Source: Actinomycetales bacterium
GTDB lineage: Bacteria > Actinomycetota > Actinomycetes > Actinomycetales > CAWJMD01
NCBI GenBank assembly: GCA_047974565.1
Contig: JBKECN010000015.1
Span: 68,142-132,141 of the forward strand
Length of the DNA: 64,000 nt
Direction of reading: 5' to 3'
Shown: piece by piece, positions 12,908 to 38,695 of the stretch
Layout: each line of letters begins with the position of its first letter
How positions within the stretch are numbered: the first letter of the stretch is position 1
Notes under the pieces: model-generated
The model's input: the letters and a program-made list of their open reading frames with translations, nothing else
The model's database searches: none
Told to the model about the DNA's origin: nothing
Made by a program: the position numbers and the translations under genes

Positions 12908-14176
12908 TCACCCTTGGATCAGTGTCTCTCGCTCGAAGCGCCGCCCGAGATTGCGCAGCCGGCTTTCGCACTCGGCTCGTGACGGGGCGCACGCCACCGC
13001 AACGGCGAGGAAGTCCGCCGAGCCGCTGGCCATCGGGATCACCTGGTCCGGCTGAGCGAAACACCAGTAGCGCTCCACCCACGGCTCGCCCGGTGCTTCG
13101 GGCAGCGCGTACACCCGGCCCGGCCGTTTCATCATGCTCACCTGCCCGGCCATCCGCCGGGGCTCGCGGCGCTCGTGCGCCAGCAACCGGGTCAGTTCGG
13201 CGGGTGCTTCCAGGCCGGCCTGGAGGCGCAGGGCGCAGTGCGCCAGGTTCACCCCGAACATGGCGTGGAAGACCTCTCGGGTCTTGGCTCCACCTGAGCG
13301 GCAGGCAACCTCGCAGATCACCAGCCGGTCGTCCTCGGTGTGGAAGATCTCCGCGTGGAAGGCATGATTGCGCAGACCGGAGGCCGGCCCACCCGCCTGG
13401 CGCAGCGCGGTGACCGCCTGTTGGGTGAGCGTGCGCAGCCGGGGCGTCAGCGGGTCACCCGGGTCCAGCGTGAGATCCACCCGGGCGCCCGGGTCGGCAC
13501 CGAAAGAGGCCAGGTCGTACTGGTACTGCGAGGGCCAGACCAACTCGACGGCGTCGCCCACGACGAGACCGTCCACGTGGCACATTCGGCCGCCGACGAA
13601 TCCTTCGACGATCAGATCATCGCGCTGGCTCCGCTCGCCGAACGCCTCGGCGAGCGCCGACTCCAGGCCGTCCGAGTCCACCAGGATCCGCAGCCCGATC
13701 GAGTTGAAGCCCGCTCGGTCCTTCAGGACGACGGGCAGGCCATGGTCGCGGGCGAAGTCCCGGACCGTGGTGGCGTCGGCCGCCAAGGCGTGCTCGGCCA
13801 CCTCGAGTCCGGCTTCGGCGAGGGTGCGCTTCATCACGAGCTTGTCCCGGAAGGGCAGCACCGCGCGAGGGCTCGCTCCGGGCAAGCCCAACTCGGCGCG
13901 CAGCTCGGCCGCCCGCTGCAGGTCCGCCTCGTGTTCGGCGATGAGTCGAGTGACACCTTGTTCCTGGACGATCGTTCGGGCGCGCTGGTCGACGGCCGGG
14001 GAGTCGAAGTCGTCGAAGACCTCGATCCTGGCGAAGGGGAGGTCGGGAGCACTTTCCCCGAACGCGCGAAGCTTGTCCGCTGCGGCCAGGATGAAGACGG
14101 GCTCGCGGACGTCCGCCAGCCAGCGCCGGTAGTCGAAGGGCTCGAAGGGGTTTCGATGCAGGATCAACAGGCTCAT
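12908..14176 (-). CDS. ATP-grasp carboxylate-amine (amino-acid) ligase-like enzyme
   Basis: 422 aa. Pre-ATP-grasp region then FRDKLVMKRTLAEAGLEVAEH...GLPVVLKDRAGFNSIG...EGFVGG...FHAEIF. ATGA overlap with the upstream gene. Confidence 0.8.
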   Translation of the reverse strand: MSLLILHRNPFEPFDYRRWLADVREPVFILAAADKLRAFGESAPDLPFARIEVFDDFDSPAVDQRARTIVQEQGVTRLIAEHEADLQRAAELRAELGLPGASPRAVLPFRDKLVMKRTLAEAGLEVAEHALAADATTVRDFARDHGLPVVLKDRAGFNSIGLRILVDSDGLESALAEAFGERSQRDDLIVEGFVGGRMCHVDGLVVGDAVELVWPSQYQYDLASFGADPGARVDLTLDPGDPLTPRLRTLTQQAVTALRQAGGPASGLRNHAFHAEIFHTEDDRLVICEVACRSGGAKTREVFHAMFGVNLAHCALRLQAGLEAPAELTRLLAHERREPRRMAGQVSMMKRPGRVYALPEAPGEPWVERYWCFAQPDQVIPMASGSADFLAVAVACAPSRAECESRLRNLGRRFERETLIQG

Positions 14177-15603
14177 GACACTTGCTCCAGGATTGACCGG
14201 GTGGACTCGGGGTGGGGGGTGAGCGAGACGACCTCTCGGGCGGCCAGGCGCTGGGCGGGTGATGAGTCAGGCCCAGAGTCGCCAAGTGGCCACGACCCGT
14301 CCAGGGCCCGGCCCAGCAGATCGGTGCCGATCGCCGGCTCGGCCAGTCGCGCGTGGCTGAGCCGCCCTTCGCTGGTGACGATCTCCACGCGCAGGTTCCG
14401 GGACAGCACGTCCGCAGCCTGCCGGTAGGCCGCGCTCGCGGTGCCGGCGCGCACGGCAAGCAGTCCGAGCCGGTCCCAGTTGTCCGCGAGCGGACGGACC
14501 GTCGCGCCCTCCTCGGTGGTCAACTGCCAGGTGATCACCCCTGGCTCGGCCCCCAGATCGCCGGAGCCGCAGATCCTGGCGACTCGGCCGGGCTCGCCCA
14601 CCAGGAACCGGGTACAGGCGCCGCCGCGTGGCCGCGGGGACTCGGCCAGGGCCGGTGCCAGCCCGAAGGGCCAGGCCAGGGACAGGCGGATGAGGTCCAC
14701 GTCGTAGGCGGCCCGCACCAGTGACGGGATGGCGTCTCCGGCGGGACGGTTGTGTCCCTCCACCACGCGCACGCCCGACGGCCCGACCTTGACCTCGGTG
14801 TGCGAGACGCCGTCCCGCAGGCCCATCGCGGTGAGGAAGTCCTGCACGGTTGCAGTCACCTCGGCGCGCTGGGCGGCGGCGATCCGGCCCGGGACCAGAT
14901 GCCCGAGCTCGGTGAAACTGCCAGGGGAGCAGAGCTTCTCGGTGACGGAGACGACGACATGCCGCCCAGCGAAGGAGAAGGCCTCGACGCTGTACTCCGG
15001 GCCCGGCAGGTACTCCTCGGCGACGAAGTCGCCGAGCACGAAGAGCGTGGAGACGCGGTCCGTGCGGCTTCCCCGGAGCCGGCGAATGTGCTGCCAGGCG
15101 TCCTCCAGATCATCCGGACTGTGGACGATCCGCACTCCCAGGCTGGCGGTTCCGTCGCTCGGCTTGACGATGAACGGGTACCCCAAGGCGTCTGGGCAGG
15201 CCCACAGGTCGGCCCGAGTGGTCACCGTGCGCGAGCGAACCGCCAGCCGCGGATCGTCGGCCAGGTGAGCCCGCATCGCCTGCTTGTCCCGGAACCGATG
15301 GGCCACCTGATAGCCGGTGCCACCGGTGCGGTACAGATCGTTCAGCCGTCCGGCATTCTCCAGGCCCGGCTCGGTGAGCGACAGGACGGCGTCGAAGCCG
15401 ACCTGACGCCACCAGTTCGCCGCGGCAGGTGCCACGTGCTGCCAGTCGACGAAATCGAGCACCTGGACCTGATGCGCGGCGTCACGTTGAACGTCGGTGA
15501 TCTTGCTCGGGTGTTGTAGAAGTAGTACGCGGATGCCCAGATCCGCTGCTGTGACGAGGGTTTCGTCAGTGCCGCCGACCAGGAGCAGGGTGGGATCAGA
15601 CAT
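14173..15603 (-). CDS. ATP-grasp carboxylate-amine (amino-acid) ligase-like enzyme
   Basis: 476 aa. FRDKQAMRAHL...GYPFIVKPSDGTASLGVRIV...EEYLPGPEYSVE...HTEVKV. Start overlaps the upstream stop by 8 nt. Confidence 0.8.
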   Translation of the reverse strand: MSDPTLLLVGGTDETLVTAADLGIRVLLLQHPSKITDVQRDAAHQVQVLDFVDWQHVAPAAANWWRQVGFDAVLSLTEPGLENAGRLNDLYRTGGTGYQVAHRFRDKQAMRAHLADDPRLAVRSRTVTTRADLWACPDALGYPFIVKPSDGTASLGVRIVHSPDDLEDAWQHIRRLRGSRTDRVSTLFVLGDFVAEEYLPGPEYSVEAFSFAGRHVVVSVTEKLCSPGSFTELGHLVPGRIAAAQRAEVTATVQDFLTAMGLRDGVSHTEVKVGPSGVRVVEGHNRPAGDAIPSLVRAAYDVDLIRLSLAWPFGLAPALAESPRPRGGACTRFLVGEPGRVARICGSGDLGAEPGVITWQLTTEEGATVRPLADNWDRLGLLAVRAGTASAAYRQAADVLSRNLRVEIVTSEGRLSHARLAEPAIGTDLLGRALDGSWPLGDSGPDSSPAQRLAAREVVSLTPHPESTRSILEQVS

Positions 15604-16576
15604 CGGCCTGCTCCTGGGTCCAGAGCGAGAGGTAGCGCTCCCCAGTGTCCGGCAGGATCGTTACCACGGTCTTGCCGATCAGGTGCGCTCGCGCCGCGAC
15701 GGTTCGTGCCGCCGCCATCGCGGCGCCCGAGGACACCCCCACCACCAGTGCGTGCTCCCGAGCGAGCGTGCGGGCGGCCTCTCTGGCCCGCGCGTCGGTC
15801 ACCGTGAGCACCTCGTCGATGAGATCGACGTCCGTGGTCGGGGCGACGAAGCCACCGTTGAGCCCAGCGATGGCATGGGTGCCGCCGACCCCGGTGCTCA
15901 ACACGGGAGACCCGTAGGGCTCCACGGCGACCACGTGCAGGTCGGGATTCTGTCGGCGCAGGTACCGGGCAGTGCCGCTGAGGGTGCCACCGGTGCCCAC
16001 TCCGGCGACCAGGACGTCCACCACGCCCTGGCAGTCCCGCCAGATCTCCGGGCCGGTGGTCTCCTCGTGGGCGCGGGGGTTGTCGGGGTTGAGGTGCTGG
16101 GCACAGAACCAGGAGTCCGGGGTGACCTCGCACAGGTGCAGGGCCGCGTCGATGGCTCCTTGCAAGCGCTGCGCCGCCGGCGTCAGCACCACCCGGGCCC
16201 CCAGCAGCCGGAGCATCGAGACTCGTTCGGGGGTAGCGGTATCCGGCATCACGACGATACAGCGGTAGCCGCGCACGGATGCCAGCGCAGCCAGTGCGAT
16301 GCCGGTGTTCCCGGAGGTGGCCTCCACCACCGTGCTTTTGCCCGGGACGAGCCGACCGGCGCGCTCGGCGCCGTCCAGCATGGCCACCGCCGCCCGGTCT
16401 TTGACGCTGGACAGAGGGTTGGCGGCCTCGACCTTGGCCAGCAGGCGGGCCCCAGGGTGCGAGGTGGCAGTGAGATCGATGAGCGGAGTGTTTCCGATCA
16501 GATCCTCCACGGACAGTGCGATCCGGGGGCGGGCTCGCAGGTCAGCGGGGGTGGCGGCAGCGATGTCGATGGTCAT
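15596..16576 (-). CDS. PLP-dependent cysteine-synthase-fold beta-replacement enzyme (CysK/SbnA-like)
   Basis: Track ORF 15596..16696; start ATG 16576 is preceded by GGAGA. Motifs IGNTPLIDL, PLSSVKDRAA (PLP Lys), TSGNTGIALA, GVGTGGTLSG. Confidence 0.85.
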   Translation of the reverse strand: MTIDIAAATPADLRARPRIALSVEDLIGNTPLIDLTATSHPGARLLAKVEAANPLSSVKDRAAVAMLDGAERAGRLVPGKSTVVEATSGNTGIALAALASVRGYRCIVVMPDTATPERVSMLRLLGARVVLTPAAQRLQGAIDAALHLCEVTPDSWFCAQHLNPDNPRAHEETTGPEIWRDCQGVVDVLVAGVGTGGTLSGTARYLRRQNPDLHVVAVEPYGSPVLSTGVGGTHAIAGLNGGFVAPTTDVDLIDEVLTVTDARAREAARTLAREHALVVGVSSGAAMAAARTVAARAHLIGKTVVTILPDTGERYLSLWTQEQADV

Positions 16577-17291: not shown

Positions 17292-17302
17292 GATGTCCTC
17301 CT

Positions 17303-17533
17303 TCACATCCGGTATTCGGGTTCCTTGCACAACAGATCGCGCTTGCCGGCGATCTCGGGGAGATAGACCTTCGCCCGCCAGTCGCTCTCGGGAACTTCCT
17401 CCAGGGCGATCGACACCGCACCGGGGGCGCAGCCAAGAGCGCTGCTGACCAGGCGGGTCATGTCGTGGGCCAATCGGGCGCGAAGTTCCGGGTCGAGTTG
17501 GACGGGGAAGTGTTTGACGCTGACGTGTGGCAT
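17303..17533 (-). other. PptA-type tautomerase (4-OT superfamily) unit, in frame with the NRPS but with its own SD and ATG-Pro start
   Basis: MPHVSVKHFPVQLDPELRARLAHDMTRLV...SIALEEVPESDWRAKVY...EPEYRM (76 aa). From memory this resembles E. coli PptA (MPHIDIKCFPRELDEQQK...). GAGGAG lies 5 nt upstream of ATG 17533. Confidence 0.75.
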
Positions 17534-20500
17534 GACGTCTCCTCGGGGGTGGGGGGTGCTGAGCAGCTGAGGCTGGGCGGGCTCGGATTCGTGGTGGGTG
17601 AACCCGCGATGGTGGGGTCTGGAAGGGGCCGGACGCCGGCCCGGGCTGGTGGACGGGACGGGCCTGGTAGATGGGCCCGGCCTGGTAGATGGGACCGGGC
17701 GGGTGGATGGGTGATGATCGTGGCCGCTTTCCAGGGCGGCGCCCACGGCCGTGATCAATCTGGCGACCTCCGGTGGGCGCAGCACCGAGTAGTGGTCCGA
17801 GGGCATCTGGACGGTGGTCGGGTCGCACACCGAGAAGCGTTGGCTGCCTTCGAGGAAGGAGTAGTCGTCGCCCTGAGCCTTGACCACCGTGATGGGGGCC
17901 CGCACGGTACGCCCGGTGAGTTCGTGGAAGGTATAGGTCGACTCGTAGGTGTGCTCCACCAGCCTGGTGACCCGAAGGATCAGCTCCTGGTCCAGTCCCG
18001 GCAGATGACGATCGAGGAAGTCGGCGAACGACTCGGCGTCGTGCACGGCGGCCCGGCAGTCGCGCAGGACCTGGCTGGCTGGCAGCTCGGCCAGGAAGAC
18101 CGACAGCAGGATCGTCAGGAAGTCCGGCGATCGGTAGTCGGCCTTGCCCGAAGGAGCACCGGCCCAGGGGCCTTGGGTACTGGGGGCTTTCGGCGCGCCG
18201 AGCAACGGTGAGCCGGGCGCGACCAGCACCAGTGCGCTCACCTGCGCTCCGGCCTGCTCAAGTTGGTACGCCGCCTCGAACGCCACCCGGGCGCCGAAGG
18301 AGTAGCCGAGGAGTGAGTACGGACCATCTGGTTGCCGCCGCCGGATCAGCTCGACGTCGGCGCTGGCCATCGAGGTGATGCCGTCGAGCACGGGTTCGCC
18401 GGGATTGATGCCGCTGGCCTGGATGCCGAGAACATCCCGGTCACTGGCCAGACCGTGAGCCAGCGGCGTCAGGTTCATCGGGAATCCGCCGAGCCCGGGC
18501 CAGCAGAACAGTGCATCGCCCGGCCGCGCACCCTTGCCCGGCGGCAACCCCTTTCCGGGGCTGGCAAGTCGTACCAGGCGGTTGGGCTTCTCGTCTGCCG
18601 GCTCGGAGTTGCCGGCCCGTCCGATTGGCACCGAGGCGGTGCCGGCTGGGTCGGTTGAGCCGCGCCGGTCGCCGTGAGCTGCTTCCTCGGGGTGGGTCGG
18701 TCCGCCTGTGGACGCCGCGGCACCGTCCAGCAGGCCTGCCAGCGCGCGTGGCGTGCTGTGCTCGAAGATCGCCTGCAGCGGCAATCTGGCCCCCAGGCGA
18801 TCGTTGAGCCGGTGGATGAGCTGGACGCTGGTGAGCGAGTCGCCACCGATGGCGAAGAAGTCGTCGACCACCGAGGCGCTGTGTGGCACCAGTTCTTGCC
18901 AGATGGACAACACCTGAGCCTCGCTGGGCGTTGCCGGGGGTACCGACTCCCGGTTCCGGGCAGTGTCGTCGGCGATTCGGCGCAAGGCCACCAGATCCGT
19001 CTTTCCTGTTGCGGTGGTGGGGATCTCGTCCAGGACGTGGATCTGCCGGGGCACCATGTAGCGGGGTAGCGTCCGGGCCAGTTCGTCGCGCAGGATCTCC
19101 GCCGGGCCTCGGCTGTGCACCCGGTCCTGGGCCATGTCACGGGCGGCGATCTGAGCCTGGGTGACGGGGCCCGCCAGCGCGAAGTAGGTCAACTCGTCGT
19201 GGCCGGTGAGTTCGCGGTACCGCGCGGCCGATGGAAGCGGCCTACCGGTCAGCGAGCTGTAGCCCGCCGACATCAGGCCGATTCCACCTCCGGCGGCCTG
19301 CAGGTGGTGCATCGCCCGCCCGAGTTGCACGAGGCCACGCCAGCCGTGTCCGGTCGAGGTGGTGAGCAGCACGCCGAAGGCCGCGTCGTCGTAGCTGGCC
19401 TGGTTGATGGCGATGACATCGCGGCGCCGGATCGTATCCGGTCCGAGGTGCTGCCACCGGGCACCGGCCCTGGTAAGCCCGGGTGCCAGGCCCGGCACCC
19501 GACGGGCGTGACCCTGCAGCAGGATGCCGACCTCGGCGGGCAGTGTGCGCGCCGGCCCCGGATGCACCCGCACCGCGGCCAAGGCCACCGCCTCGTCTCC
19601 GAGCCCCAGCAGATTCGCTGCCAATGCAGGGATCTCGGTGGTGCTCAGGCCGAGACCGGCCAGTGCGCGGTCCAGCGCACCCAACAGGTGTCCGGCCTCC
19701 AGATGCAGTACCTCATCGACGTTGGTCACATAGACGCTGGTGATCGCCGTCCGGATGCCGACCAGGTGCACCTCCAGCAGCGGTTCACCGGCCGGGCAGT
19801 CTGCCGGCGCAGCGAGATCGCCGAACAACGGCGTGGACGCCTCGACGTCGACCCGGTCCAGCCGGTGGGCGTACTGGTCGAAGTAGTAGAGACCATCGGG
19901 CAGCCCGGCGATTCCGGCGCACCGCAGGTAGAGCTGAGTGGCCACCAGGGCACCGGGGGAGGCGTAGGCGAACTTCGGCAGCAGCCGGTCCGGGCTCTCG
20001 AACGGTCCGAGCCAGCGCAGCAGCCGCCCCACCCCGTCCAGATCCGGCAGTCGTCCGGCCTCCGGGACGGGATCGTCAGTGACGCAAGGATTCTCAGGTG
20101 GTTGGCCGGCACGGGCCAGCCACTCGCGGATGGTGTCGGCGTCCACGCCGCTGCCTTCGAAGATCCGGTAGGTCTTGCGGGCGAAGACCTCTCGCACCTG
20201 CTCGAGGCTGGGTTCGGCGCCCGGCAATGGCAGGCCCGGGCCGGTCAGGTCGCGTCGGCGTCCGAGCTGGGCCAACTGAGCGCGGACCTGCACCCGCGAA
20301 CCCTTGGAGCTGTGGTGGCCGCCACCCTCACCCTGATCCATCAACGCGGCCTCCTCGGAGTCCAGCCCGACGAAGGCGACCAGGCCGGTGCATCCGGTGC
20401 TGGGATCCTCATGCGGCACCACCACTGCCTGACGGATCCAGCGGTGTTCCTCGACGGCGTTGCGGACCTCGTCCAGTTCGATCCGGTGGCCGTTGATCTT

Positions 20501-21811: not shown

Positions 21812-21821
21812 GGTGCCCGCC

Positions 21822-22436: not shown

Positions 22437-22547
22437 GGGGACGACGCTATGGGCGTGAAATAGCCGGTTTCAATAGCCCGGAGAATAGTCGGGGATAGTG
22501 CATGGCGAGGGTGTGCGGGCCGCACCTGGCCACCGTGACATCCTCAC

Positions 22548-22655
22548 GGTTGAGCACGGCACGACCCCTGGTGAGCCGGTACGACCCCCTGCTGAGCACG
22601 GTGCGAACCGCTGGTGAGCAGGCAACCATGAATTTCTCATGGGTGGCGGGTGAGC
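22548..22655. repeat. Phased ~21-bp degenerate direct repeats (TGGTGAGCnCGGnACGACCCC) in the divergent promoter spacer
   Basis: TGAGC cores start at 22551, 22572, 22593, 22615 and 22651 (spacing 21, 21, 22, 36). Confidence 0.85.
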
Positions 22656-22760
22656 CAGGTGGATTGACCCTGCCGAGGGTCGGGCCTAGCGTTGTGGATA
22701 TCGAATTCACCTGAGGAGCGGCACCCGGATGAAGCGCATTCGGGATTCGGCCTCACTCAT

Positions 22761-30605: not shown

Positions 30606-31531
30606 GTGACTGGGCGGCAAGCGCCCGGCACGCCGTGGTGGTCGGCGCCGGAGCCGTCGGCGCTCTGTTCGCCCACGCGCTGGCCGGTGATGGTGTGCAG
30701 GTGACGATGCTCGATCGCACTGCCCATCCGTCGGGTCCCTTCCCGGTGATCGAATGCGATGCGACCTCGTTGACGGTTCGCGCGATCGCCCACCTGGATC
30801 GGGCAGACATCGTGGTGATGTCACTGCCGGAGAAGGTTTCGATCGCAGCCGTGAGCATCATCGCCTCCGCGGTCCGTCCCGATGCGCTCATCGTGGATAC
30901 CTCGTCCGTCAAGACGGGATTCGCCGACGAGGCCCGTCGGCTCCCGCCGGGGAGCGCCGAGATTGTCGGGGTGAACCCGATGTTCGCCCCGTCCCTGGGC
31001 TTCCAGGGTCGCCCGGTCGCTGTCGTGAGCATCCGGCCAGGCCCGCGGGGTACCGGTTTCACCGACCGGCTGCGCAGCTGGGGGAGTCAGGTCGTCGAGC
31101 TCACCGCCCAGGAACACGACGCTCTGACCGCCCAGACCCAGGCCCTGACGCATCTGAGCGTGCTCGCCTATGCGCTCACCCTGGCCCGGGCCGGCACGTC
31201 CGTCGGCGACCTGGTGGAAAGCGCCCCGCCGCCCTGCCGGAGCCTGCTCGCGCTGGCGGCACGCATCCTGGGCGGCAGCCCGGAGGTGTACTGGGACATC
31301 CAGATCCAGAATCCGGGTGCGGACGAACTCCGCCAAGGCCTCGCCGATTCGCTCGCCGAACTCTCGAAAATCATCGCCAACGATGACTTCTCGGCATTCG
31401 CTGACCTGCGAGCCGAGCTCATCGGCTACTTGGAACCGGAACTGGACACCCTCTCCGACGACTGTGCCCAGATGTTCACCGCCCAGATGTCCTCTGCCCA
31501 GCCGGTGCCCGGAGTCGCGGATCCTCACTGA
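30602..31531 (+). CDS. Prephenate/arogenate-dehydrogenase-family enzyme (PapC-like candidate)
   Basis: Rossmann VVVGAGAVGALFA, then VDTSSVK...GVNPMFAP...QEHDALTAQTQALTH typical of the TyrA family. ATGA overlap with pabAB. Confidence 0.8.
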   Translation: MSDWAASARHAVVVGAGAVGALFAHALAGDGVQVTMLDRTAHPSGPFPVIECDATSLTVRAIAHLDRADIVVMSLPEKVSIAAVSIIASAVRPDALIVDTSSVKTGFADEARRLPPGSAEIVGVNPMFAPSLGFQGRPVAVVSIRPGPRGTGFTDRLRSWGSQVVELTAQEHDALTAQTQALTHLSVLAYALTLARAGTSVGDLVESAPPPCRSLLALAARILGGSPEVYWDIQIQNPGADELRQGLADSLAELSKIIANDDFSAFADLRAELIGYLEPELDTLSDDCAQMFTAQMSSAQPVPGVADPH

Positions 31532-31657
31532 ACAGGCACCGCCAACGGCCAGCTCCCAGCAAAAAATGTCCATGCAACCGAAAGACTCGACCAGGCCGAG
31601 ACCTGACCTCCGTCATACCCAAGAAGCAAATCCGTCAGACCCACGAAAGGCATTGCC

Positions 31658-33340
31658 ATGCAGACCTTCACCACCACTGCCAGCAGTAGCGTCCTGGACG
31701 TCGAGTCCCGGAACCTGCTTGCCCTGGACGACAGTGTCGGCGGCGGAAGCATCGTCGCCTCCGCCCTCGCCTACAGCACCGACCCGACCACGCATTTCCT
31801 GCACAGTGCAACCCCCGTCGACCTGCCGGACGGGCGACGCTGCAGCGATCTGAGCCTGCATGATCTGGACCAGGCCACTCAGAGCTGGTCGGCCTGGTAC
31901 CTCGACCGGGGCGTGCGACCCCGAGACCGGGTGGCGGTCTTCATCGCCGACTCGTTCGCCTACTCCATCCACTTCTACGCGCTGGCCCAGATCGGGGCGA
32001 TCGCGGTGCTGATCAACAGCAACGCCTCCGCGCAGGTGGCTGGCTCGCTGCTCGAGCAGACCGAACCGGTGGGCCTGTACGCCGACCCCGAGCACCTGGC
32101 CCGGCTCGCCGAGGTGCCTGGTTCGCTGTGGGTGGTCACGTCCGAGCAGGTTCGCGCGCCCGCGCCGGCCACCCTGGCGGACGAGCACCGGTACAAGCAC
32201 GTGGGCGAGGACCCCGTCGTCATCCTGCATTCCTCCGGTACCACCGGACGACCCAAGCCGACGATCCACACCCATGCCTCGATCGTGGCCGGGCCCAAGT
32301 TCCGGCTGGTGGATCACCGCGAGGATCCCCACGCCACAACGATGACCGCACTACCGCAGTCACATCTGGGGTGCATTGCCTTCACCACCTACAGCGTCCT
32401 GGCCGGGGCGCCCCTGGTGGCCCTTCGGGACTGCCCCGGCCCCGTGCTGGCCGAATCGATCGACCGGTACCGTCCGACCGCGGTGATGTCCTTCGCCCAC
32501 GCGTACAGCGAACTCGCCGCCACCACCATCGAGCCTGGCACCCTCGACTCGGTGGGCACCTGGATCTCCATCGGCGACGCGGTGCACGAGGCGCACATCC
32601 GCCGGGTCCTGGACATGCGCAGCCCGTCGCTGCCGGCGGCGACCTTCCTGGACCGGCTGGGTACCACCGAGCTCGGCTGGGGCGTGCTGTTGCAGACGCA
32701 CACCACCGGTGCCGGGGTGGCCGCCCGCAGCGCCGGCCGTCCGGTCGGGGTGGCCGAGGTGCAGGTGCTGCGCGCCGACGGCACGCCGGCCGCACCCCAT
32801 GAGCCGGGCTTCCTCGGTGCGCGCGGCCCGGCGATCACGCCCGGCTACTGGGCCAACTCAGCGGTCACCTACTCCTCGCGGCTGGCCGGCTACTGGCTGA
32901 CCGGCGACGTGGCGGTGTGCGACGAGGGCGGCAACTACTACCTGATCGACCGCGTGGTGGATGCCATCGACACCCGCGACGCAGTGGGCTACTCCGTGGC
33001 GATGGAGGAGGCCTTGCTCGGCGGACTACCCGAGATCGAGGAGGTTGCCGTGGTGGCCGGCCGATACGACTCGCGGACCGTGGCAGTGGCCATGATCAAG
33101 CCGAGCCCCGGCGAGCACGACCCCGACCTGCTGGTGCGTCGGGTGAACGAGGTGCTCGTGCGCAACGCTCACCCGCCGATCGCCTTCGTCGAACTCATCG
33201 ACGCGCACGACGATCTGCCCACCGGGGTTACCGGCAAGGTGCTGAAAAGGCAACTGCGTGAGCGGTATGCGACGCTGCCGGTGCTGCCCGACGCCCGGCT
33301 GATCGCGGCCGATCCGCTCCTGGTCCCGATGGCCGGGTGA
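31658..33340 (+). CDS. Adenylate-forming enzyme (acyl/aryl-CoA ligase-like, ANL superfamily)
   Basis: 560 aa. ILHSSGTTGRPKP, GTTELG, WLTGDVAVCDEGGNYYLIDRVVD, TGKVLKRQLRE. Preceded by a 126-bp lower-GC spacer. Confidence 0.85.
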   Translation: MQTFTTTASSSVLDVESRNLLALDDSVGGGSIVASALAYSTDPTTHFLHSATPVDLPDGRRCSDLSLHDLDQATQSWSAWYLDRGVRPRDRVAVFIADSFAYSIHFYALAQIGAIAVLINSNASAQVAGSLLEQTEPVGLYADPEHLARLAEVPGSLWVVTSEQVRAPAPATLADEHRYKHVGEDPVVILHSSGTTGRPKPTIHTHASIVAGPKFRLVDHREDPHATTMTALPQSHLGCIAFTTYSVLAGAPLVALRDCPGPVLAESIDRYRPTAVMSFAHAYSELAATTIEPGTLDSVGTWISIGDAVHEAHIRRVLDMRSPSLPAATFLDRLGTTELGWGVLLQTHTTGAGVAARSAGRPVGVAEVQVLRADGTPAAPHEPGFLGARGPAITPGYWANSAVTYSSRLAGYWLTGDVAVCDEGGNYYLIDRVVDAIDTRDAVGYSVAMEEALLGGLPEIEEVAVVAGRYDSRTVAVAMIKPSPGEHDPDLLVRRVNEVLVRNAHPPIAFVELIDAHDDLPTGVTGKVLKRQLRERYATLPVLPDARLIAADPLLVPMAG

Positions 33341-33465
33341 GCTGGGCCGCCGGTCGAGCCGAGACGCGGGAAACCCGGCGCTGCTGCCCACGAAACGCGC
33401 CCGGTACGGGATGCACACTCACGAGTGTCCATTTCCCCGGTCTTGTCCGGAGATGCCTGGGCTGA
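33337..33465 (+). CDS. Candidate 42-aa Cys-containing small ORF (speculative RiPP-type precursor)
   Basis: Not in the track (<60 aa). GTG 33337 forms a GTGA overlap with the ligase stop. Translation is VSWAAGRAETRETRRCCPRNAPGTGCTLTSVHFPGLVRRCLG. GC3 is only about 29/42 with several rare codons, so coding status is doubtful. Confidence 0.15.
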   Translation: MSWAAGRAETRETRRCCPRNAPGTGCTLTSVHFPGLVRRCLG

Positions 33466-33500
33466 CAGACTCCCCGGGTCAGCGTCGGGGAGTCTGTCAG
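33462..33500 (+). promoter_or_regulatory. Perfect 15-bp-stem hairpin directly upstream of the YcaO gene
   Basis: CTGACAGACTCCCCG-ggtcagcgt-CGGGGAGTCTGTCAG. The 3' arm ends 10 nt before ATG 33511 and overlaps the first bases of the AGGAG SD (33499-33503). Confidence 0.6.
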
Positions 33501-33510
33501 GAGCCATCGC

Positions 33511-36012
33511 ATGCCGGTCAGGGACGCCGATCCACCCGTGGGGCTTCGCCCCGGGGTGACCTTCTCCACCCTGGCGGACGGGCGACGCGCGTTGCACGCA
33601 GAGGGCCTGATGCTCAACCTGCCCGACCAGGCGGCGAGCCTCGCCCTGCCACTGCTGGCCGGTCATCTCAGCCCCACGCAGATCGCCCAGCGGTTGGACG
33701 GTCTGGTCGGCGGTGCCGAGGCGGCTGCCCTCATCGCCGACCTCTGGCAACGAGGACTCCTCGTCCAGGGCGTGCCGCAGCCACCGGGGCGAGTCTTCGT
33801 GGACGACTCCGCCCTGCCGTCACCGCCAGCCCCCGCACGGGCCCGGTACAAGGAGCAGGTTGGCAACAGTCAGGAGGCTGTAAAACGTTCCGGCAGAACC
33901 GTCCTCGACGGCGTCCCGCTCGAGGGCAGCGCCGGTACCGGCGAGACCGAGCAAGCCGGCGAGAGTGGGGGAGAGCCCGCGGCGTGGGTGGCCCGGCTAA
34001 TCGCCGACTGCGGGCTACACCCCAGCGGGCCCGCCGAGGCCGACGCGGCGATCGTGCTGTGTGCGGACTACCTGCAGACCGCGCTGATCGAGGCCGCCGA
34101 GCGACTCCGCAGCCAGGCAACCGCCTGGCTCCCGGTGCGGGTGAGCGCCACCGCGGTCTGGCTCGGGCCGTGGGTCGAGGAGAACCTGTGTTGGGACTGC
34201 GTCCGGGCCCGGCTGCGCGCGCACGATCCACGCCCCGACAGCGTCGTCGACGCCTCCGCCGAGAACGGACACCACGTCGGCACCCATGACCAGCGGACCT
34301 CGCTCGACCACGGCGGCGCATGGCAGCTCACCGACCAAGCCGGGGATGAGCGGACCGTCGATCTTCGTCACGTCGATGAACAAGGGGGCCACGACCTCGC
34401 GTCGCCCGACCTGACGCTGGTCGGGATGGGTGCCGCCGCGCGCCTGACTCGCGACCGCCTGACTCGCGATCGACTGGCCCAGCACACCACGACGGCATCC
34501 GGGCGAGCCGCGCCACCAGCCGGGGACCTCGATCCGGGGCAGCGCCCGGAGCCGGGACGGGGTCGGCTGCTCTGCATCGACGCCGACACGATGAGCCAGA
34601 GCGAGCATGTCGTGCTGGCCAGGCCCGAGTGCCCACGATGCGGCACGGGCGAAGCGATGGCCGCCAGGATGGACACTCGTCCCGCCCTGGCCCCGCAGGA
34701 GACCGCAGAACGTGGCGCCACCGGCCACCGGGCCCGCAACGCCGAGGACACCTGGCGGCGGTACCGCCACCTCGTCTCGCCGGTGAGCGGGCCGGTGGCC
34801 CGGGTGGACCCCGACCGGCGCCTACCGCCGGGCCTGCACGCCTACCTGGCCGGCAGCAACCTCGCCGGCGGACTGGTGCCGGGCCGGCGCAGCGTCCTGC
34901 GCTGGGATTGCGGAGGCAAGGGGGCGACCGCTGCGGCAGCCCGAACCAGTGCTCTGTGCGAGGCGCTGGAGCGGACCAGCAGCAGCTGGCACGGCGACGA
35001 GCGCCGCATTCTCGCCCGGTACGCCGATCTGGAGGAGGCTATCCCGGCCCGGGACCTGCAGCTCTTCGGCGACGAACAGTTCGCCGGGCGCACCGGGTGG
35101 AACAGCCGTCACTCGGCCTTTCAGCGTGTCCCCGAACCTGTCTCGGACGACGACGAACTCGAGTGGACCCCCGCGTGGCCGCTGGACGGCGGACCCAGGA
35201 CCCTCATCCCGACCGGCCTGTGCCTGCTCGGCGGCCCGGACGCCCACCGGCTCGCGGGAGACTCCAACGGATGCGCCGCCGGTAGTACCCTCACCGACGC
35301 CGTGCTGCAGGGGCTACTCGAGGTCATCGAACGCGACGCCGTGGGCATCTGGTGGTACAACCGGTTGCCGCAGCCCGACATTGACCTGGACGGCCTGAGG
35401 GAGCCCTATCTGGACGACGTCCGTCAGGTCTACCACGATCTCGGGCGCGACCTGTGGGCGCTGGAGGTGACCAGTGACCTCGGAATCCCCGTCGTCGCAG
35501 CGGTTTCCCGGCTGCGGGACGCAGCGCGGGAGAGCATCATCTTCGGCTTCGGCGCCCATCTCGACCCGCGGGTCGCCGTCCTACGCGCGGTCCTGGAGAT
35601 GAACCAGTTCCTGGCCACCGCGCTAACCGTCGACCCCGAGCAGTGGTGGGATCAGGATCCGGACTTCGCCCGCTGGATGACTACCGCGACCCTGGACGCC
35701 CATCCCTACCTGGCCCCACACCCGCAGGTGCCCCGGGTGCCCGACCAGATCCCCGAGCCGAGGCAGCTGGGCTTGCTGCCCGCGGTGGACGCCGTCCGGG
35801 ACCGGCTCGAGATCGCCGGATTACGCGCCTATCTCGTCGATCTGACCCGGGCAGACCTTGGCTTGCCGGTGGTCAAGGTGCTCGTTCCCGGAGCGCGACA
35901 CTGCTGGCTGCGCACTGCGCCCGGCCGGCTGTTCGAGGTGCCGGTGCGTCTGGGTCGGCTGAAGCACCAACACGGCGTGGCCGACCTCAACCCCGATCCG
36001 ATCTTCCTGTGA
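33511..36012 (+). CDS. Fused E1-like (C-protein, with N-terminal RRE-like winged helix) / YcaO (D-protein) azoline-forming cyclodehydratase
   Basis: 833 aa. E1-like half has the CWDC (227-230) and CPRC (374-377) zinc pair and WLPVRVSATAVWLGPW. YcaO half has RYRHLVSPVSGPV, SNGCAAGSTLTDAVLQGLLEVIERDAVGIWWYN and a Pro-containing C-terminus NPDPIFL. Confidence 0.9.
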   Translation: MPVRDADPPVGLRPGVTFSTLADGRRALHAEGLMLNLPDQAASLALPLLAGHLSPTQIAQRLDGLVGGAEAAALIADLWQRGLLVQGVPQPPGRVFVDDSALPSPPAPARARYKEQVGNSQEAVKRSGRTVLDGVPLEGSAGTGETEQAGESGGEPAAWVARLIADCGLHPSGPAEADAAIVLCADYLQTALIEAAERLRSQATAWLPVRVSATAVWLGPWVEENLCWDCVRARLRAHDPRPDSVVDASAENGHHVGTHDQRTSLDHGGAWQLTDQAGDERTVDLRHVDEQGGHDLASPDLTLVGMGAAARLTRDRLTRDRLAQHTTTASGRAAPPAGDLDPGQRPEPGRGRLLCIDADTMSQSEHVVLARPECPRCGTGEAMAARMDTRPALAPQETAERGATGHRARNAEDTWRRYRHLVSPVSGPVARVDPDRRLPPGLHAYLAGSNLAGGLVPGRRSVLRWDCGGKGATAAAARTSALCEALERTSSSWHGDERRILARYADLEEAIPARDLQLFGDEQFAGRTGWNSRHSAFQRVPEPVSDDDELEWTPAWPLDGGPRTLIPTGLCLLGGPDAHRLAGDSNGCAAGSTLTDAVLQGLLEVIERDAVGIWWYNRLPQPDIDLDGLREPYLDDVRQVYHDLGRDLWALEVTSDLGIPVVAAVSRLRDAARESIIFGFGAHLDPRVAVLRAVLEMNQFLATALTVDPEQWWDQDPDFARWMTTATLDAHPYLAPHPQVPRVPDQIPEPRQLGLLPAVDAVRDRLEIAGLRAYLVDLTRADLGLPVVKVLVPGARHCWLRTAPGRLFEVPVRLGRLKHQHGVADLNPDPIFL

Positions 36013-38015
36013 CCGCGACCTCTGGTAGCTCGGGCATCTCGGGGACCGCGGGTATCTCGGAGACGAGTCCTTCGGGCGCGGCCCCGGACGCCCGGCGACG
36101 GGAGTGGTTGCGGCGTCGGACGTTGCAGGGCTGGGCCCTTCAGGTGGCAGCCGCCGCCTACCTGCTCGTCGACCTGCTGCGCATCGTCGACCGGCACCTC
36201 GGCTGGGTCCCGACTCTGGTCGCCGCCGCCCTGCTGAGCCTGATGTGGTGGCTCTTCGCGGTCCGCCAGACCCGCCATGCGTTCCGGCCGATGACCCCGG
36301 TGGCCTGGGCGACCCTGCTGGCACAGGCTCTCGTCACGCTGGCCCCGACGGCCGTCTTCGGCCTCGACTGGCTGGGCGTCTGGGCACTGCTCGGCGGTGC
36401 GCTGCTGACCCTTACCCCGTTCGCGGTCGGGCTGACCGGCGCGCTCGCGGTGGCCGGCGGAGCGGGTGCGCTGATCTGGCAGGAAGTGGGTAGCCCGGCG
36501 GCCGCCGTCCTGGGTGGGGTGGGGGTACTCGCGGCGTCCGCGGCCTTCTTCGGCCTCGTGCTGCTCGCCTCGGCCAGCGACGAATTGGCCCGTGCGCAGG
36601 GCGAACTCGTCCAGGCGGCAGTGCTTCGCGAGCGCGCGCGCTTCCACGAGCGGATCGCCAGCACGCTCAAGGCCAATCTGCGCCAGATCCGCGAACTGGC
36701 CCACCGCCCGCTTGGGAGTCAGCTCCCGGCTGCGGCCGGGACCCAGGGGCAAGACGACGCCGGAGAAGGGCTCGCCCAGGCCAGCCGGGCCATCTCGGCC
36801 ATCGCCCGGTCGTCCCTGCTGGACAGCCGGAAGCTGGCCCATGCGCTGCCATCACAAGATCTCGACCCGGCTCTCTCGCCGACCCTGACCGGTGCGCGTT
36901 TCGCCGCGGTGCCCGGGTGGGCACTGCGCGGGCATCTGGCCGGCGCCATCCTGTCGGTGGTGCTGGTGCTGCGGGGCCTGGACGTGCTGCTGGCGGCCGC
37001 GGCACCGCTGCGAACATCGCCGATGACGCCCGGGTTCCTCCTCGGTGCAGCGCTGCTGGCGGCCTGCATCGGCCTGCAACTGGTGGTGCTTGCCCAAGCC
37101 GCTCGGGAGGTGAGCCAGCGGATGGCGGCCTCGCTCTGGGGCGCTCAGCTGCTGGTGACCGTGGGGCTGACGGTGTGTCTACCGCCCAACGGCGCGGCCA
37201 TGCTGGGCCTGCCCGCCGCCTCGGCGGTGTTGCTCTTCGGGATCGTCCCCGGGGGGTGGATGGCGTTGGCTCTCCTGCTGGTGGCGGGGGCGCTGCTCGC
37301 CGATCCGACCTCCCTGACGGGGCTCGGCTACGGCTTCCTCACCAGCTTGAACACCTTCGTCTTCGCCTACGCCCTCACCGAACTGAGCGTCCAGCTATCC
37401 CGCGTGCTGGCGGCGCAGGCCGAGATGGTCACCCTCGCGGTGATCGGCGAGAAGGGCCGGCAGGGCCGGGACCTGCACGACATCCTCGGGCCGACCATGT
37501 CTGCGCTGGCGTTGAAGTCGTCCCTGGCCGCCAAGCTGGTCGACCGCGATCCCGACCGCGCCCGAGCTGAGCTCGGGGAGATCGACGAGGTGGCCCGGCG
37601 TGCCATCGCCGAACTCGACCAGGTCCGCGACGCAGCCTTCGCCACCTCGGTGGATCGTGAAGTGGAAGCCTGCCGGTCGCTGCTCGCCGTCGCCGGGATC
37701 TCGGTGTCGCTGACCAGGAGCGGACCGGCCCCGCCTCAGGAGCACGTGGTCCCGCTCGCCGGATGCCTGCGCGAAGGGGCGAACAACGTCCTGCGGCACT
37801 CCGACGCCACCCGATGCACCATTCGGCTCACCTGCACCCCGGCCGTCTCGACTCTGCGGATAGCCAATGACGGGCTGCGCAATGGGCAGGCGGACTCACC
37901 GGGACGGGGACTGTCGAACCTGGCGGAACGGGCCGGTGACCTGGGTGGGCAGGCGCGGGCCTGGACAGCCGACGGCTGGCACTTCCTGGAGTTGACCCTG
38001 CCCGTGCACAGGTGA
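36009..38015 (+). CDS. Polytopic HisKA_3-type sensor histidine kinase with duplicated TM-DHp module
   Basis: 3' part of track ORF 35643..38015. GTG 36009 forms a GTGA overlap with the YcaO stop. First H-box-like is RERARFHERIASTL, second is GRDLHDILGPTMSAL. A single HATPase_c (NNVLRHS...GRGLSNLAERA). Confidence 0.85.
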   Translation: MTATSGSSGISGTAGISETSPSGAAPDARRREWLRRRTLQGWALQVAAAAYLLVDLLRIVDRHLGWVPTLVAAALLSLMWWLFAVRQTRHAFRPMTPVAWATLLAQALVTLAPTAVFGLDWLGVWALLGGALLTLTPFAVGLTGALAVAGGAGALIWQEVGSPAAAVLGGVGVLAASAAFFGLVLLASASDELARAQGELVQAAVLRERARFHERIASTLKANLRQIRELAHRPLGSQLPAAAGTQGQDDAGEGLAQASRAISAIARSSLLDSRKLAHALPSQDLDPALSPTLTGARFAAVPGWALRGHLAGAILSVVLVLRGLDVLLAAAAPLRTSPMTPGFLLGAALLAACIGLQLVVLAQAAREVSQRMAASLWGAQLLVTVGLTVCLPPNGAAMLGLPAASAVLLFGIVPGGWMALALLLVAGALLADPTSLTGLGYGFLTSLNTFVFAYALTELSVQLSRVLAAQAEMVTLAVIGEKGRQGRDLHDILGPTMSALALKSSLAAKLVDRDPDRARAELGEIDEVARRAIAELDQVRDAAFATSVDREVEACRSLLAVAGISVSLTRSGPAPPQEHVVPLAGCLREGANNVLRHSDATRCTIRLTCTPAVSTLRIANDGLRNGQADSPGRGLSNLAERAGDLGGQARAWTADGWHFLELTLPVHR

Positions 38016-38695
38016 CCCGCGGGCTCGCGGGCTCGTGGCAGGCAGAGTCATCCCGAGCGGACAATTCCGTCGGACGCTACGATTCCAACGTGATTCGGGT
38101 GCTGCTGGCGGAGGACGTGCACATGGTCCGCGGGGCCCTTGTCGCGTTGCTGGACCTCGAGGACGACATCGAGGTTGTCGCCACCTCCTCCGACGGCACC
38201 GATGTGCTCGAGTTGGTGCAGGCGCACACCCCGGACGTGGCCGTCCTCGACATCGACCTCGCCGGGGCTGATGGCATCGATCTGGCCCGCGCCATCCAAG
38301 AGGATCATCCGGGCGTGCGAGTGCTGTTGCTCACCAGCATGTCCACCCCCGCCACCGTCCAGCGGGCACTCTCGGCCCAGGTCGACGGCTTCCTCCTCAA
38401 GGACGAACAGCCCGAACAACTCGCCCAGGCCGTGCGGGACATCGCTCGCGGCCGCAAGGTCGTCGATGGGGACCTGGTGTTGAACGCGATGAGTGTGGGC
38501 CCCTGCCCGCTCAGCCCCCGCGAGTTGGAGGTGCTGCGGGCGGCTGCGGATGGTCAGGAGCCAGGCGAGATCGCGAAGAAACTCTTCCTGTCGATCGGCA
38601 CCGTCCGCAACCATCTCACCGCGGCGATGGCCAAACTGTCGGCGCGAAACCGGGTGGACGCGGTGCGCAAGGCCACTGATTCAGGCTGGATCTGA
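38012..38695 (+). CDS. NarL/LuxR-family response regulator
   Basis: GTGA overlap with the kinase stop (alternative start GTG 38090, VIRVLLAEDV). Receiver domain plus HTH LSPRELEVLRAAADGQEPGEIAKKLFLSIGTVRNH. Confidence 0.9.
   Translation: MTRGLAGSWQAESSRADNSVGRYDSNVIRVLLAEDVHMVRGALVALLDLEDDIEVVATSSDGTDVLELVQAHTPDVAVLDIDLAGADGIDLARAIQEDHPGVRVLLLTSMSTPATVQRALSAQVDGFLLKDEQPEQLAQAVRDIARGRKVVDGDLVLNAMSVGPCPLSPRELEVLRAAADGQEPGEIAKKLFLSIGTVRNHLTAAMAKLSARNRVDAVRKATDSGWI

Follow-up and report, generated by a model that had tools for sequence, protein, structure and literature searches.

Enzymatic diazotisation is rare, and the diazotases characterised in the work cited here act on aminohydroxybenzoate- or aminocinnamate-type substrates or, in the case of Tri17, on a hydrazone (PMC12207350, PMC11705231, PMC12836137). 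CmaA6 is an ATP-dependent diazotase whose variants at His224, Phe267 and Lys533 lose activity (PMC12207350), and Tri17, of triacsin biosynthesis, is a nitrite-using N-nitrosylase (PMC11705231). The named route to the nitrite is the CreE/CreD pair (PMC11705231, PMC12836137). A diazotase acting with a reductase, NybO with NybC, gives an aryl hydrazine (PMC12836137), and in the tasikamides a biosynthetic diazonium is coupled by a non-enzymatic Japp-Klingemann reaction (PMC11705231). The ATP-grasp enzyme FuzC uses a hydrazine nucleophile (PMC13149037), and a nonribosomal peptide synthetase (NRPS) made of adenylation (A), oxidase (Ox), thiolation (T), thioesterase (TE) and tautomerase (Tau) domains, in that order, is found in MinA and S. 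chromofuscus IndC (PMC6908994). Relatives of a diazotase, of ATP-grasp peptide ligases and of such an NRPS lie together in the stretch of DNA described here, 64,000 nucleotides of contig JBKECN010000015.1 from an Actinomycetales bacterium, referred to below as the window.

The genes of interest fall into two units. We put at about 0.6 the probability that unit 1 (12908-33340, ~20.4 kb) is an orphan cluster for a ribosome-independent peptide, with an ANL-superfamily enzyme of the diazotase family on its aminophenylalanine block, and that unit 2 (33462-39018), which holds a YcaO-type protein, is independent of it. Unit 1 probably builds a small peptide modified by nitrogen-nitrogen (N-N) chemistry. 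An earlier note on this DNA had observed the genes and their overlaps correctly; its interpretation of them as one locus is only partly supported. Its description of a cluster for a small, ribosome-independent peptide, with p-aminophenylalanine supply, an indigoidine-type NRPS, a CysK-type enzyme and four ATP-grasp domains, is borne out. No characterised cluster with this gene set was found in the searchable literature, again as the note had held, and that literature yielded neither a cluster joining aminophenylalanine genes to a diazotase nor one joining an indigoidine-type NRPS, CysK and ATP-grasp ligases.

Genes in the window were checked by open reading frame (ORF) listing, codon-position GC, and Pfam and NCBIfam scans. 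The comparative set consisted of 89 related loci anchored on a ligase or ANL gene, covering 10 kb around the anchor, and the protein search for closest relatives covered 5.8 billion sequences. Our observations are of domain content, family assignment, architecture, synteny and co-occurrence. The closest proteins in the large search were 61% identical for the ANL enzyme, about 49% for a fused double ATP-grasp (di-ATP-grasp) ligase and 47% for the YcaO protein; these figures leave out an NCBI entry identical to the YcaO protein, which comes from a metagenome-assembled 'Actinomycetales bacterium'.

The diazotase-family enzyme and its cassette

By its sequence, the ANL enzyme of unit 1 appears to use nitrite for the conversion of aromatic amines to reactive diazonium groups. 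Its best solved relative is 9xb8 (E=2.6e-194, 650 bits), followed by 8ztz/9ijf (E=3e-83, 283 bits) and by Tri17 (8tf7/9bq0; E=6e-76, 259 bits), which was tied to its PDB codes through PMC11705231 and PMC12207350. Ordinary fatty-acyl/aryl-CoA ligases of the FadD13 type match at E=1e-27 or worse, with 100 bits at most. Among NCBIfam models the AvaA6 diazotase (NF058622) is at the top with 344 bits, and the next family scores 160. The second relative, 8ztz, appears to be CmaA6, because of its molecule size, its entry type and a single 16-residue offset that places His224, Phe267 and Lys533 on H, F and K. In the window ANL, which is only ~35-40% identical to CmaA6-type enzymes, these three residues align with the H of PQSH, the F of VMSF and the K of TGK. 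The label 'ANL ligase' in the earlier note was therefore too generic: the solved relatives, the AvaA6 model and the conserved CmaA6 residues place the enzyme in the diazotase family. The note had also left out N-N bond formation on an arylamine, which is now the likely chemistry given that family. The AvaA6 score lies far below the equivalog cut-off, so the enzyme is best regarded as a family member that is the orthologue of no characterised enzyme.

The ANL gene stands at the end of a conserved cassette, in which a chorismate mutase domain (CM_2), a fused PabAB, a prephenate-dehydrogenase-like enzyme (PDH) and the ANL follow one another. The order CM_2-PabAB-PDH-ANL is identical in six genera, being found in the window, an Actinobacteria metagenome-assembled genome (L004), Salinactinospora qingdaonensis (L006), Geodermatophilus sp. 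(L092), Streptomyces triticagri (L093) and Microbispora sp. (L094). Against the five other loci the window proteins are 57-62% (PabAB), 40-47% (PDH) and 54-61% (ANL) identical. The ANL of the Microbispora locus shares 93% identity with the 9xb8 protein, so a structure of one cassette member exists. No publication behind the entry was found in the literature, and its deposition is a sign that a cassette homologue is already under study.

The sole difference in cassette order concerns the mutase. In all five other loci CM_2 is a free-standing gene of 100-126 amino acids just 5' of PabAB, whereas in the window it joins the C terminus of a major facilitator superfamily (MFS) transporter through a ~100-amino-acid low-complexity linker (MFS_1 spans residues 27-258 and CM_2 residues 530-608, the latter with 40 bits). 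The fusion point coincides with the junction of a 'ligase-MFS' and a 'CM-PabAB-PDH-ANL' module.

The other enzymes of arylamine supply were identified with varying margins. PabAB comprises GATase, Anth_synt_I_N and Chorismate_bind domains and scores 358 bits against a cut-off of 328 for TIGR00553 pabB; the PDH-like protein has PDH_N at 37 bits and PDH_C at 33 bits. The HisC-family aminotransferase reaches 387 bits for NF002878 (cut-off 374), and homologues 45-47% identical to it adjoin the same cassette in L006, L008/L092 and L093. It is predicted to convert p-aminophenylpyruvate to p-aminophenylalanine. Pfam and NCBIfam scans of the cluster detected no Aminotran_4 or PabC-type lyase. A PapB/PapC function for the mutase and dehydrogenase, acting on the 4-amino analogues of their usual substrates, would fit this setting.

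A source of nitrite or nitric oxide (NO) adjoins the cassette in four of the five other loci (L093, L004, L094 and L092). L093 carries a Lyase_1 and NAD_binding_9 pair beside the cassette, which we take to be CreD/CreE-like since these are presumably the Pfam families to be expected for CreD and CreE. In L004 (6586-10478) and L094 (12981-16576) a molybdopterin oxidoreductase and a Pyr_redox_2/Fer2_BFD partner stand directly after the ANL. We read this pair as assimilatory-nitrate-reductase-like, which implies nitrate reduction as a dedicated nitrite supply beyond CreE/CreD and NO synthase. An NO synthase lies near the cassette in L092. Because arylamine supply, a diazotase-family ANL and nitrite supply are thus associated, nitrite-dependent N-N chemistry is assigned to the ANL of the window as well. 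L093 additionally holds an AurF-type N-oxygenase and a methyltransferase (633-2251) beside the cassette, and since the N-oxygenase adjoins it, the same arylamine may there be both N-oxygenated and diazotised.

The earlier note had placed a boundary in the 126-bp gap that precedes the ANL gene, grouping the ANL with the YcaO protein and its two-component system. The comparative contexts move this boundary one gene later: the fixed CM-PabAB-PDH-ANL cassette and the neighbouring nitrite or NO sources assign the ANL to the aminophenylalanine block.

The putative peptide-assembly genes and the probable unity of unit 1

The minus-strand operon of unit 1 contains an indigoidine-type NRPS. Pfam recognises AMP-binding, AMP-binding_C, PP-binding, Thioesterase and Tautomerase domains, the last with 23.9-26.9 bits against a cut-off of 22, and an insert of ~420 amino acids lies between AMP-binding (to about residue 500) and AMP-binding_C (917-950). 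Pfam found nothing on the insert, and a single-sequence PDB search reached only E=0.49. A profile of 12 insert sequences, however, retrieves BmdC, an NRPS oxidase (E=1e-7), and a nitroreductase (3e-5), which confirms the Ox label that the earlier note had given it. The specificity residues, read by hand from the motif positions, are DAWQYGLINK and agree at eight of ten positions with what we take to be the glutamine code of the Stachelhaus table, DAWQFGLIDK. A minimycin-type cluster was considered and rejected, as the Pfam results for the window include no C-glycosynthase (IndA/MinB), DUF4243 or uracil phosphoribosyltransferase.

The CysK-type enzyme of the same operon (PALP, 247 bits) had been called 'CysK/SbnA-like'. 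The first half of this name stands, with cysKM at 351 bits against a cut-off of 344; the second does not, as the SbnA model TIGR03945 gives 225 bits against 350, and SbnA-type diaminopropionate synthesis was rejected on that ground. Among solved structures, true cysteine synthases match it best (E=1e-86) and DcsD also appears, and the SVKDR lysine and TSGNTG loop are kept. In 11 loci, ATP-grasp-CysK fusions have a CysK part that shares 57-62% identity with it. By analogy with the logic of D-cycloserine, in which an acetyltransferase, a CysK-like enzyme with an unusual nucleophile and an ATP-grasp work together, it may join an alanyl unit to some nucleophile, which could be the heterocycle of the NRPS. 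The small HAD-family protein scores 24.6 bits for HAD_2 (cut-off 23.8) and reads DLHRT, not DxD, at motif I. None of the related loci compared had a homologue of it.

Next to the NRPS lies a DsbA-fold protein that is clearly Rv2466c-like (Pfam 195 bits; solved Rv2466c, E=4.7e-44). Homologues 46-49% identical occur in six other ANL loci (L002, L003, L006, L009, L020 and L093), in all of which the motif is C-P-F/W-A. The window protein reads CPFA where the solved Rv2466c has CPWC. Together the DLHRT of the HAD protein and this CPFA suggest altered chemistry.

ATP-grasp domains are distributed over both operons. Ligase B (ATP-grasp_4 84 bits, LAL_C2 52.7 bits) and both halves of the di-ATP-grasp protein clear the cut-offs for the ATP-grasp and the C-terminal L-amino acid ligase (LAL) domains. 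Ligase A is more divergent, with ATP-grasp_4 at 26.7 bits against a cut-off of 27 and a weak LAL_C2; the solved structures closest to it are those of L-amino acid ligases (4wd3, E=2.5e-9). The ligase B gene overlaps that of ligase A by 4 nt and that of the CysK enzyme by 8 nt. Ligases A and B are 55% and 47% identical, respectively, to genes of a Streptomyces cirratus locus (L027). That locus (98-15117) holds the closest relatives of the two minus-strand ATP-grasps and of CysK, and also a GHMP kinase, a second PALP-ATP-grasp fusion, a D-Ala-D-Ala carboxypeptidase and a phospholipase-D-like protein, which hints at a cell-wall-directed product with self-resistance. Its annotation did not clarify the CysK reaction.

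Do the two operons serve one product? The separate parts are widespread. In 11 genomes (L007, L008, L011-L018, L021) an NRPS 39-42% identical to that of the window is found with a CysK part and several ATP-grasp ligases, and both annotated loci (L007 and L008) also have a CysE-like hexapeptide-repeat acyltransferase and an MFS transporter. The combination in the window, without the YcaO protein, recurs in Geodermatophilus, where L008 and L092 overlap by 7.6 kb at 99.8% identity and together make up ~31 kb. The order there is IndC-like NRPS, CysE-like, ATP-grasp-CysK, two ATP-grasps, MFS, NO synthase, isochorismatase, aminotransferase, DAHP synthase, CM, PabAB, PDH, ANL, ATP-grasp, FemAB-like, MFS and ATP-grasp. 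In Streptacidiphilus (L011) PabAB stands beside the NRPS/CysK module. Recurrence in Geodermatophilus, and probably in Streptacidiphilus, upholds the view in the earlier note that the divergent operons cooperate, as they probably do.

The di-ATP-grasp ligase, encoded among the 'pap' genes on the plus strand, ties the operons together more closely. Its N half is 50-55% identical to the ATP-grasp that is elsewhere fused to CysK or follows the ANL, and its C half is 41-47% identical to the next ATP-grasp gene in those loci. It thus corresponds to the pair of ATP-grasps that the NRPS/CysK module has elsewhere, so that the modules of the window are interleaved, not merely adjacent. Full-length relatives of the di-ATP-grasp (48-53%) sit with an ANL, an Rv2466c-like protein, an MFS transporter, split PabB/PabA and Aminotran_4, in loci that look like a p-aminobenzoate version of the same logic. 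One of these, L002, also carries a Lyase_1 and NAD_binding_9 pair; at the same position in L003 only NAD_binding_9 and a 30-amino-acid ORF were called.

The interleaving counts against the alternative that unit 1 consists of two independent clusters back to back. Under that alternative the minus operon (NRPS, HAD, CysK and two ATP-grasps) and the plus operon (aminotransferase, di-ATP-grasp, MFS-CM, PabAB, PDH, ANL and possibly the Rv2466c-like protein) would make separate products. We regard this as unlikely, yet deserving serious weight, because each module also exists alone. In Streptomyces canus and some nine further genomes the NRPS, CysE-like, ATP-grasp-CysK, ATP-grasp and MFS genes occur without any pap or ANL gene, CM-PabAB-PDH-ANL occurs with ATP-grasp ligases and without NRPS or CysK in L006, L093 and L094, and the minus-operon ATP-grasps and CysK are closest to the S. 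cirratus locus, which has no pap genes. It is opposed, besides, by the renewed contact of the modules in Geodermatophilus, by PabAB beside the NRPS/CysK module in L011 and by the single 411-bp divergent promoter region that the operons of the window share.

Proposed chemistry and its alternatives

From these observations we infer the substrate of the ANL enzyme, the roles of the Rv2466c-like and CysK-type proteins, the order of ligation and the product. PabAB, the CM domain, the PDH-like enzyme and the HisC-type aminotransferase would lead from chorismate to p-aminophenylpyruvate and p-aminophenylalanine. The ANL enzyme most likely activates nitrite with ATP as AMP-nitrite, the nitrite being supplied from elsewhere in the genome, and would convert the para-amino group of p-aminophenylalanine or its keto acid, or of a peptide containing such a unit, into a diazonium. 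This would then be reduced, captured or coupled. The diazonium is probably handled by the Rv2466c-like protein, which might, for instance, use a thiol to reduce it towards a diazene or hydrazine; this role is proposed because the single-cysteine protein co-occurs with these ANLs. The NRPS is expected to cyclise and oxidise glutamine to the aminopyridinedione that is the indigoidine monomer; a beta-substituted alanine, or else cysteine, is the probable contribution of the CysK-type enzyme. The four ATP-grasp domains would ligate the building blocks, giving a peptide some three to five units long, which the MFS transporter would export.

Several points weigh against this scheme. The AvaA6 score of the ANL, 344 bits, falls short of the equivalog cut-off of 975 and does not fix its substrate or its exact reaction, which may be diazotisation or N-nitrosation. 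The equation of 8ztz with CmaA6 is drawn from size, entry type and numbering offset, not from a publication. A para-diazonium without an ortho hydroxyl would be unstable. The CysK protein is nearly a bona fide cysteine synthase and may simply make cysteine. The NRPS/CysK and aminophenylalanine/ANL modules each occur alone in other genomes and are found together in only three lineages, and they could make two products. Characterised diazotases act mostly on arylamines of the aminohydroxybenzoate or aminocinnamate type (PMC11705231, PMC12836137). Finally, Pfam scans that took in the remaining ORFs reveal no CreE/CreD, NO synthase or nitrate reductase in the 64-kb window; for another family of nitrite-using N-N enzymes, clusters without dedicated nitrite genes have been reported (bioRxiv 10.1101/2025.05.27.656397).

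What would become of the diazonium can be stated more narrowly, at the price of a more speculative claim that we consider distinctly doubtful. An aryl diazonium on a p-aminophenylalanine residue might serve as electrophile or precursor within the ligase-built peptide, through azo or hydrazone coupling or through reduction to a hydrazine. By the first route it would couple, as azo or hydrazone, to the electron-rich aminopyridinedione from the indigoidine-type NRPS and give an arylazo-pyridone chromophore. Such arylazo-pyridone coupling is the chemistry of the industrial pyridone azo dyes. By the second, the monothiol Rv2466c-like protein would reduce the diazonium to 4-hydrazinophenylalanine, which an ATP-grasp ligase would acylate to a hydrazide. 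If either route is true, at least six actinobacterial genera would share a new family of N-N natural products.

A different use of the same enzyme is improbable to a slightly greater degree. The ANL could be a true diazotase that serves to remove or replace the amino group, with the Rv2466c-like protein as the denitrifying reductase and a peptide without an N-N bond as the product. AvaA6/AvaA7 and CmaA6/CmaA7 of the avenalumic acid and p-coumaric acid pathways provide the precedent (PMC11705231), and the consistent presence of the Rv2466c-like protein beside these ANLs, like the instability of a para-diazonium, would suit such a role. Deamination, however, would turn p-aminophenylalanine into phenylalanine, for which no dedicated pathway is needed, and the domain scans of the window show no AvaA7-type reductase. 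Since ATP-grasp ligases accept hydrazine nucleophiles, moreover, the product could plausibly keep the N-N bond.

If the proposed scheme is true, a conserved cassette in at least six actinobacterial genera puts a diazonium on an amino-acid side chain, and does so repeatedly joined to ATP-grasp peptide ligases and to three different nitrite/NO sources. This would offer a testable route to new N-N (hydrazine, azo, diazo) peptides and enzymes for reactive phenylalanine analogues, and it would link a widespread, uncharacterised module of indigoidine-type NRPS, CysK and ATP-grasp genes to diazotase chemistry. The appeal is to natural-product and N-N-bond enzymology, lessened by the missing nitrite source and by a homologue already under study.

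The YcaO unit, gene layout and known systems

The YcaO protein, histidine kinase and regulator form a separate module beside unit 1. The earlier label 'E1-like/YcaO' holds: besides a YcaO domain of 302 bits, the protein scores 79 against a cut-off of 37 for the leader-binding model TIGR03882 and 224 against 219 bits for SagD (TIGR03604). It thus carries the leader-binding domain of ribosomally synthesised and post-translationally modified peptide (RiPP) systems, and the idea that it modifies a non-ribosomal peptide is without support. Homologues 44-47% identical follow a small ORF in unrelated surroundings. In a Streptomyces locus (L091) an ORF of 54 amino acids, YcaO (44%), HisKA_3 kinase (31%) and GerE regulator (54%) stand in the same order as in the window, with none of the other cluster genes; in Amycolatopsis (L089) an ORF of 56 amino acids precedes YcaO. 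No YcaO gene lies within 10 kb of the anchor in any of the 89 related loci. Between the ANL and YcaO genes of the window is a very stable hairpin of -47.2 kcal/mol (z = -5.0), a fold that none of 200 shuffles equalled; it ends 10 nt before the YcaO ATG. On co-occurrence, then, there are two adjacent units and the YcaO block stands apart, as the earlier note had allowed; the ligase it had placed with that block goes with the aminophenylalanine genes.

Unit 2 is probably a small RiPP-type system. Unlike L089 and L091, which have their small ORFs directly upstream, the window has no suitable precursor ORF in the 170-bp ANL-YcaO spacer. Its only precursor candidate is the minus-strand ORF of 52 amino acids beyond the regulator, which has coding-like codon-position GC and aligns loosely with the small ORFs upstream of YcaO homologues, at a BLAST similarity that is not significant: neither the L089 and L091 ORFs against the window nor the 52-amino-acid ORF against all loci gave a significant match. 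Positions 38681-38761 hold 4.1 tandem copies of a 20-bp unit (consensus TCAGGCTGGATCTGACGGGC). The array begins in the last codons of the NarL-type regulator gene, extends into the spacer before the small ORF and could be a set of regulator binding sites.

The earlier model of a single 26-kb cluster, in which the ANL would be an ordinary carboxylate-activating ligase (forming an acyl-AMP/CoA or an amide) and the YcaO protein would modify the peptide under two-component control, draws on the common strand of all genes at 22848-38695 with short gaps of 126 and 170 bp and on amide-forming ANL enzymes of ATP-grasp peptide pathways such as DdaG of dapdiamide, but it is very improbable in view of the ANL family assignment and cassette synteny, the RiPP leader-binding domain, the finding of YcaO homologues, accompanied by the same kinase and regulator and preceded by a small ORF, amid unrelated genes, the absence of YcaO genes from the 10 kb around the anchors of the 89 loci and the strong hairpin between ANL and YcaO. 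For annotation this means that the neighbouring YcaO gene should not be merged into the cluster.

All 15 genes named in the earlier note were found in the ORF list and by Pfam and NCBIfam, at coordinates that were exact or within a few codons (Table 1). The 4- and 8-nt overlaps at 14173, 15596, 23972, 26581, 28479, 30602, 36009 and 38012, the 126-bp gap before the ANL gene (31532-31657) and the 411-bp divergent spacer (22437-22847) were likewise verified. The NRPS more likely starts at 21811, according to the gene call on an independent contig (L001); the HAD gene starts at the ATG at 17291, preceded by an AAGGAGG ribosome-binding site, and the CysK gene at the ATG at 16576, preceded by AGGAG. 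The G+C content of the window is ~70%, and base composition was rejected as evidence of an inserted island since GC is flat at 0.67-0.72 over the region. Rfam and tRNA scans of the window gave no matches.

Table 1. Genes and other features of units 1 and 2, with window positions
Feature	Position	Strand	Basis
ATP-grasp ligase A, 422 aa, divergent L-amino-acid-ligase type	12908-14176	minus	Pfam, solved relatives
ATP-grasp ligase B, 476 aa, L-amino-acid-ligase type	14173-15603	minus	Pfam
CysK-type pyridoxal-phosphate enzyme, ~326 aa, O-acetylserine sulfhydrylase family	15596-16576	minus	Pfam PALP, NCBIfam cysKM
Small HAD-family hydrolase, 227 aa	16608-17291	minus	Pfam HAD_2
Single-module NRPS, A(Gln)-Ox-T-TE-tautomerase, indigoidine/MinA type	17303-21811	minus	Pfam, insert profile
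Rv2466c-like DsbA-fold protein, single active-site cysteine (C-P-F-A)	21822-22436	minus	Pfam, solved Rv2466c
HisC-family aminotransferase	22848-23975	plus	NCBIfam NF002878
Fused double ATP-grasp ligase, 870 aa	23972-26584	plus	Two ATP-grasp_4 + LAL_C2 units
MFS transporter with C-terminal chorismate-mutase (CM_2) domain	26581-28482	plus	Pfam
Fused PabA-PabB aminodeoxychorismate synthase	28479-30605	plus	Pfam, NCBIfam TIGR00553
Prephenate-dehydrogenase-like enzyme, putatively PapC-type	30602-31531	plus	Pfam PDH_N/PDH_C
ANL-superfamily enzyme, ATP-dependent diazotase / N-nitrosylase family	31658-33340	plus	Solved relatives, NCBIfam, synteny
Perfect 15-bp inverted repeat (hairpin) between ANL and YcaO	33462-33500	plus	Repeat search, RNA fold
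Fused leader-peptide-binding / YcaO cyclodehydratase-type protein	33511-36012	plus	Pfam, TIGR03604, TIGR03882
HisKA_3 histidine kinase	36009-38015	plus	Pfam
NarL/GerE-type response regulator	38012-38695	plus	Pfam
Small ORF, 52 aa, GGAG ribosome-binding site; weak YcaO precursor candidate	38860-39018	minus	ORF list, codon-position GC

Genes on either side of the two units deserve brief mention. A Pterin_bind (dihydropteroate-synthase-type) gene at 42553-43461 on the minus strand, 4 kb past the regulator and outside a folate operon context, adjoins an amidinotransferase/arginine-deiminase-like gene and a further PALP gene, the second. With p-amino-aromatic compounds as products of the nearby cluster, it could represent an additional copy that is resistant. 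ApbE, a Nuo51-like protein of 710 amino acids with flavin mononucleotide and 4Fe-4S sites, and a ferredoxin are encoded at 8267-12141, immediately upstream of the cluster. In the Amycolatopsis locus a trio of ApbE, ferric-reductase-like and Nuo51-like genes (20143-22184) lies 8 kb from the YcaO homologue. The shared ApbE and Nuo51-like genes may be the remnant of an older synteny that was later interrupted by the insertion of unit 1. A full-length bacterial serpin (Pfam Serpin, 304 bits) is encoded at 3312-4712 on the minus strand, beside a HAMP/HisKA kinase and an OmpR-type regulator.

As far as we could search, the cluster is of a recurrent kind, undescribed in the searchable literature and built from known enzyme families, and each of its parts can be set beside a known system. 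The YcaO protein of unit 2 resembles the fused SagC/SagD-like cyclodehydratases of thiazole/oxazole-modified microcin (TOMM) systems in meeting both NCBIfam models and in having homologues with a small ORF directly upstream. It differs in being paired with a two-component system, with no SagB-type dehydrogenase nearby and no convincing Cys/Ser/Thr-rich precursor found in the window.

In unit 1 the ATP-grasp domains are of the LAL type known from BacD (bacilysin), RizA (rhizocticin) and FuzC/FuzH (fuscazine), and the coupling of a CysK-family enzyme to ATP-grasp chemistry recalls D-cycloserine (DcsE/DcsD/DcsG). Unlike these pathways, the window has four ligase domains, two of them fused, and no known product is linked to their close homologues. 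The NRPS shares A(Gln)-Ox-T-TE with BpsA, IndC and MinA, has the extra tautomerase of MinA and S. chromofuscus IndC, and is likewise followed by a HAD gene. In contrast to the indigoidine and minimycin synthetases, it is accompanied not by an IndA/MinB C-glycosynthase, DUF4243 or uracil phosphoribosyltransferase, but by ATP-grasp ligases and a CysK-type enzyme, a coupling it shares with 11 other uncharacterised loci.

The arylamine genes resemble PapA/PapB/PapC of pristinamycin, and the corresponding genes of chloramphenicol and obafluorin, in comprising a fused PabAB, a CM-type domain, a PDH-type enzyme and an aminotransferase, with no PabC-type lyase. They differ in that the mutase domain of the window is fused to an MFS transporter and in that the cassette is always, in six genera, followed by a diazotase-family ANL.

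The ANL itself is by sequence of the same family as the enzymes of the diazotase pathways: cremeomycin CreM with CreE/CreD, AvaA6, CmaA6, tasikamide Aha11, NybO/NybC and Tri17. It departs from them in falling below the AvaA6 equivalog cut-off and in having no nitrite source in the window. As in those pathways, a dedicated arylamine supply adjoins the enzyme, and homologous loci carry CreE/CreD-like nitrite genes. Here, however, the arylamine would be of the p-aminophenylalanine type, from a PapABC-like route, in place of an aminohydroxybenzoate or aminocinnamate; the scaffold would be built by ATP-grasp ligases in place of a polyketide synthase or multimodular NRPS; and a monothiol Rv2466c-like partner stands in the place of the NADPH reductases AvaA7 and NybC.

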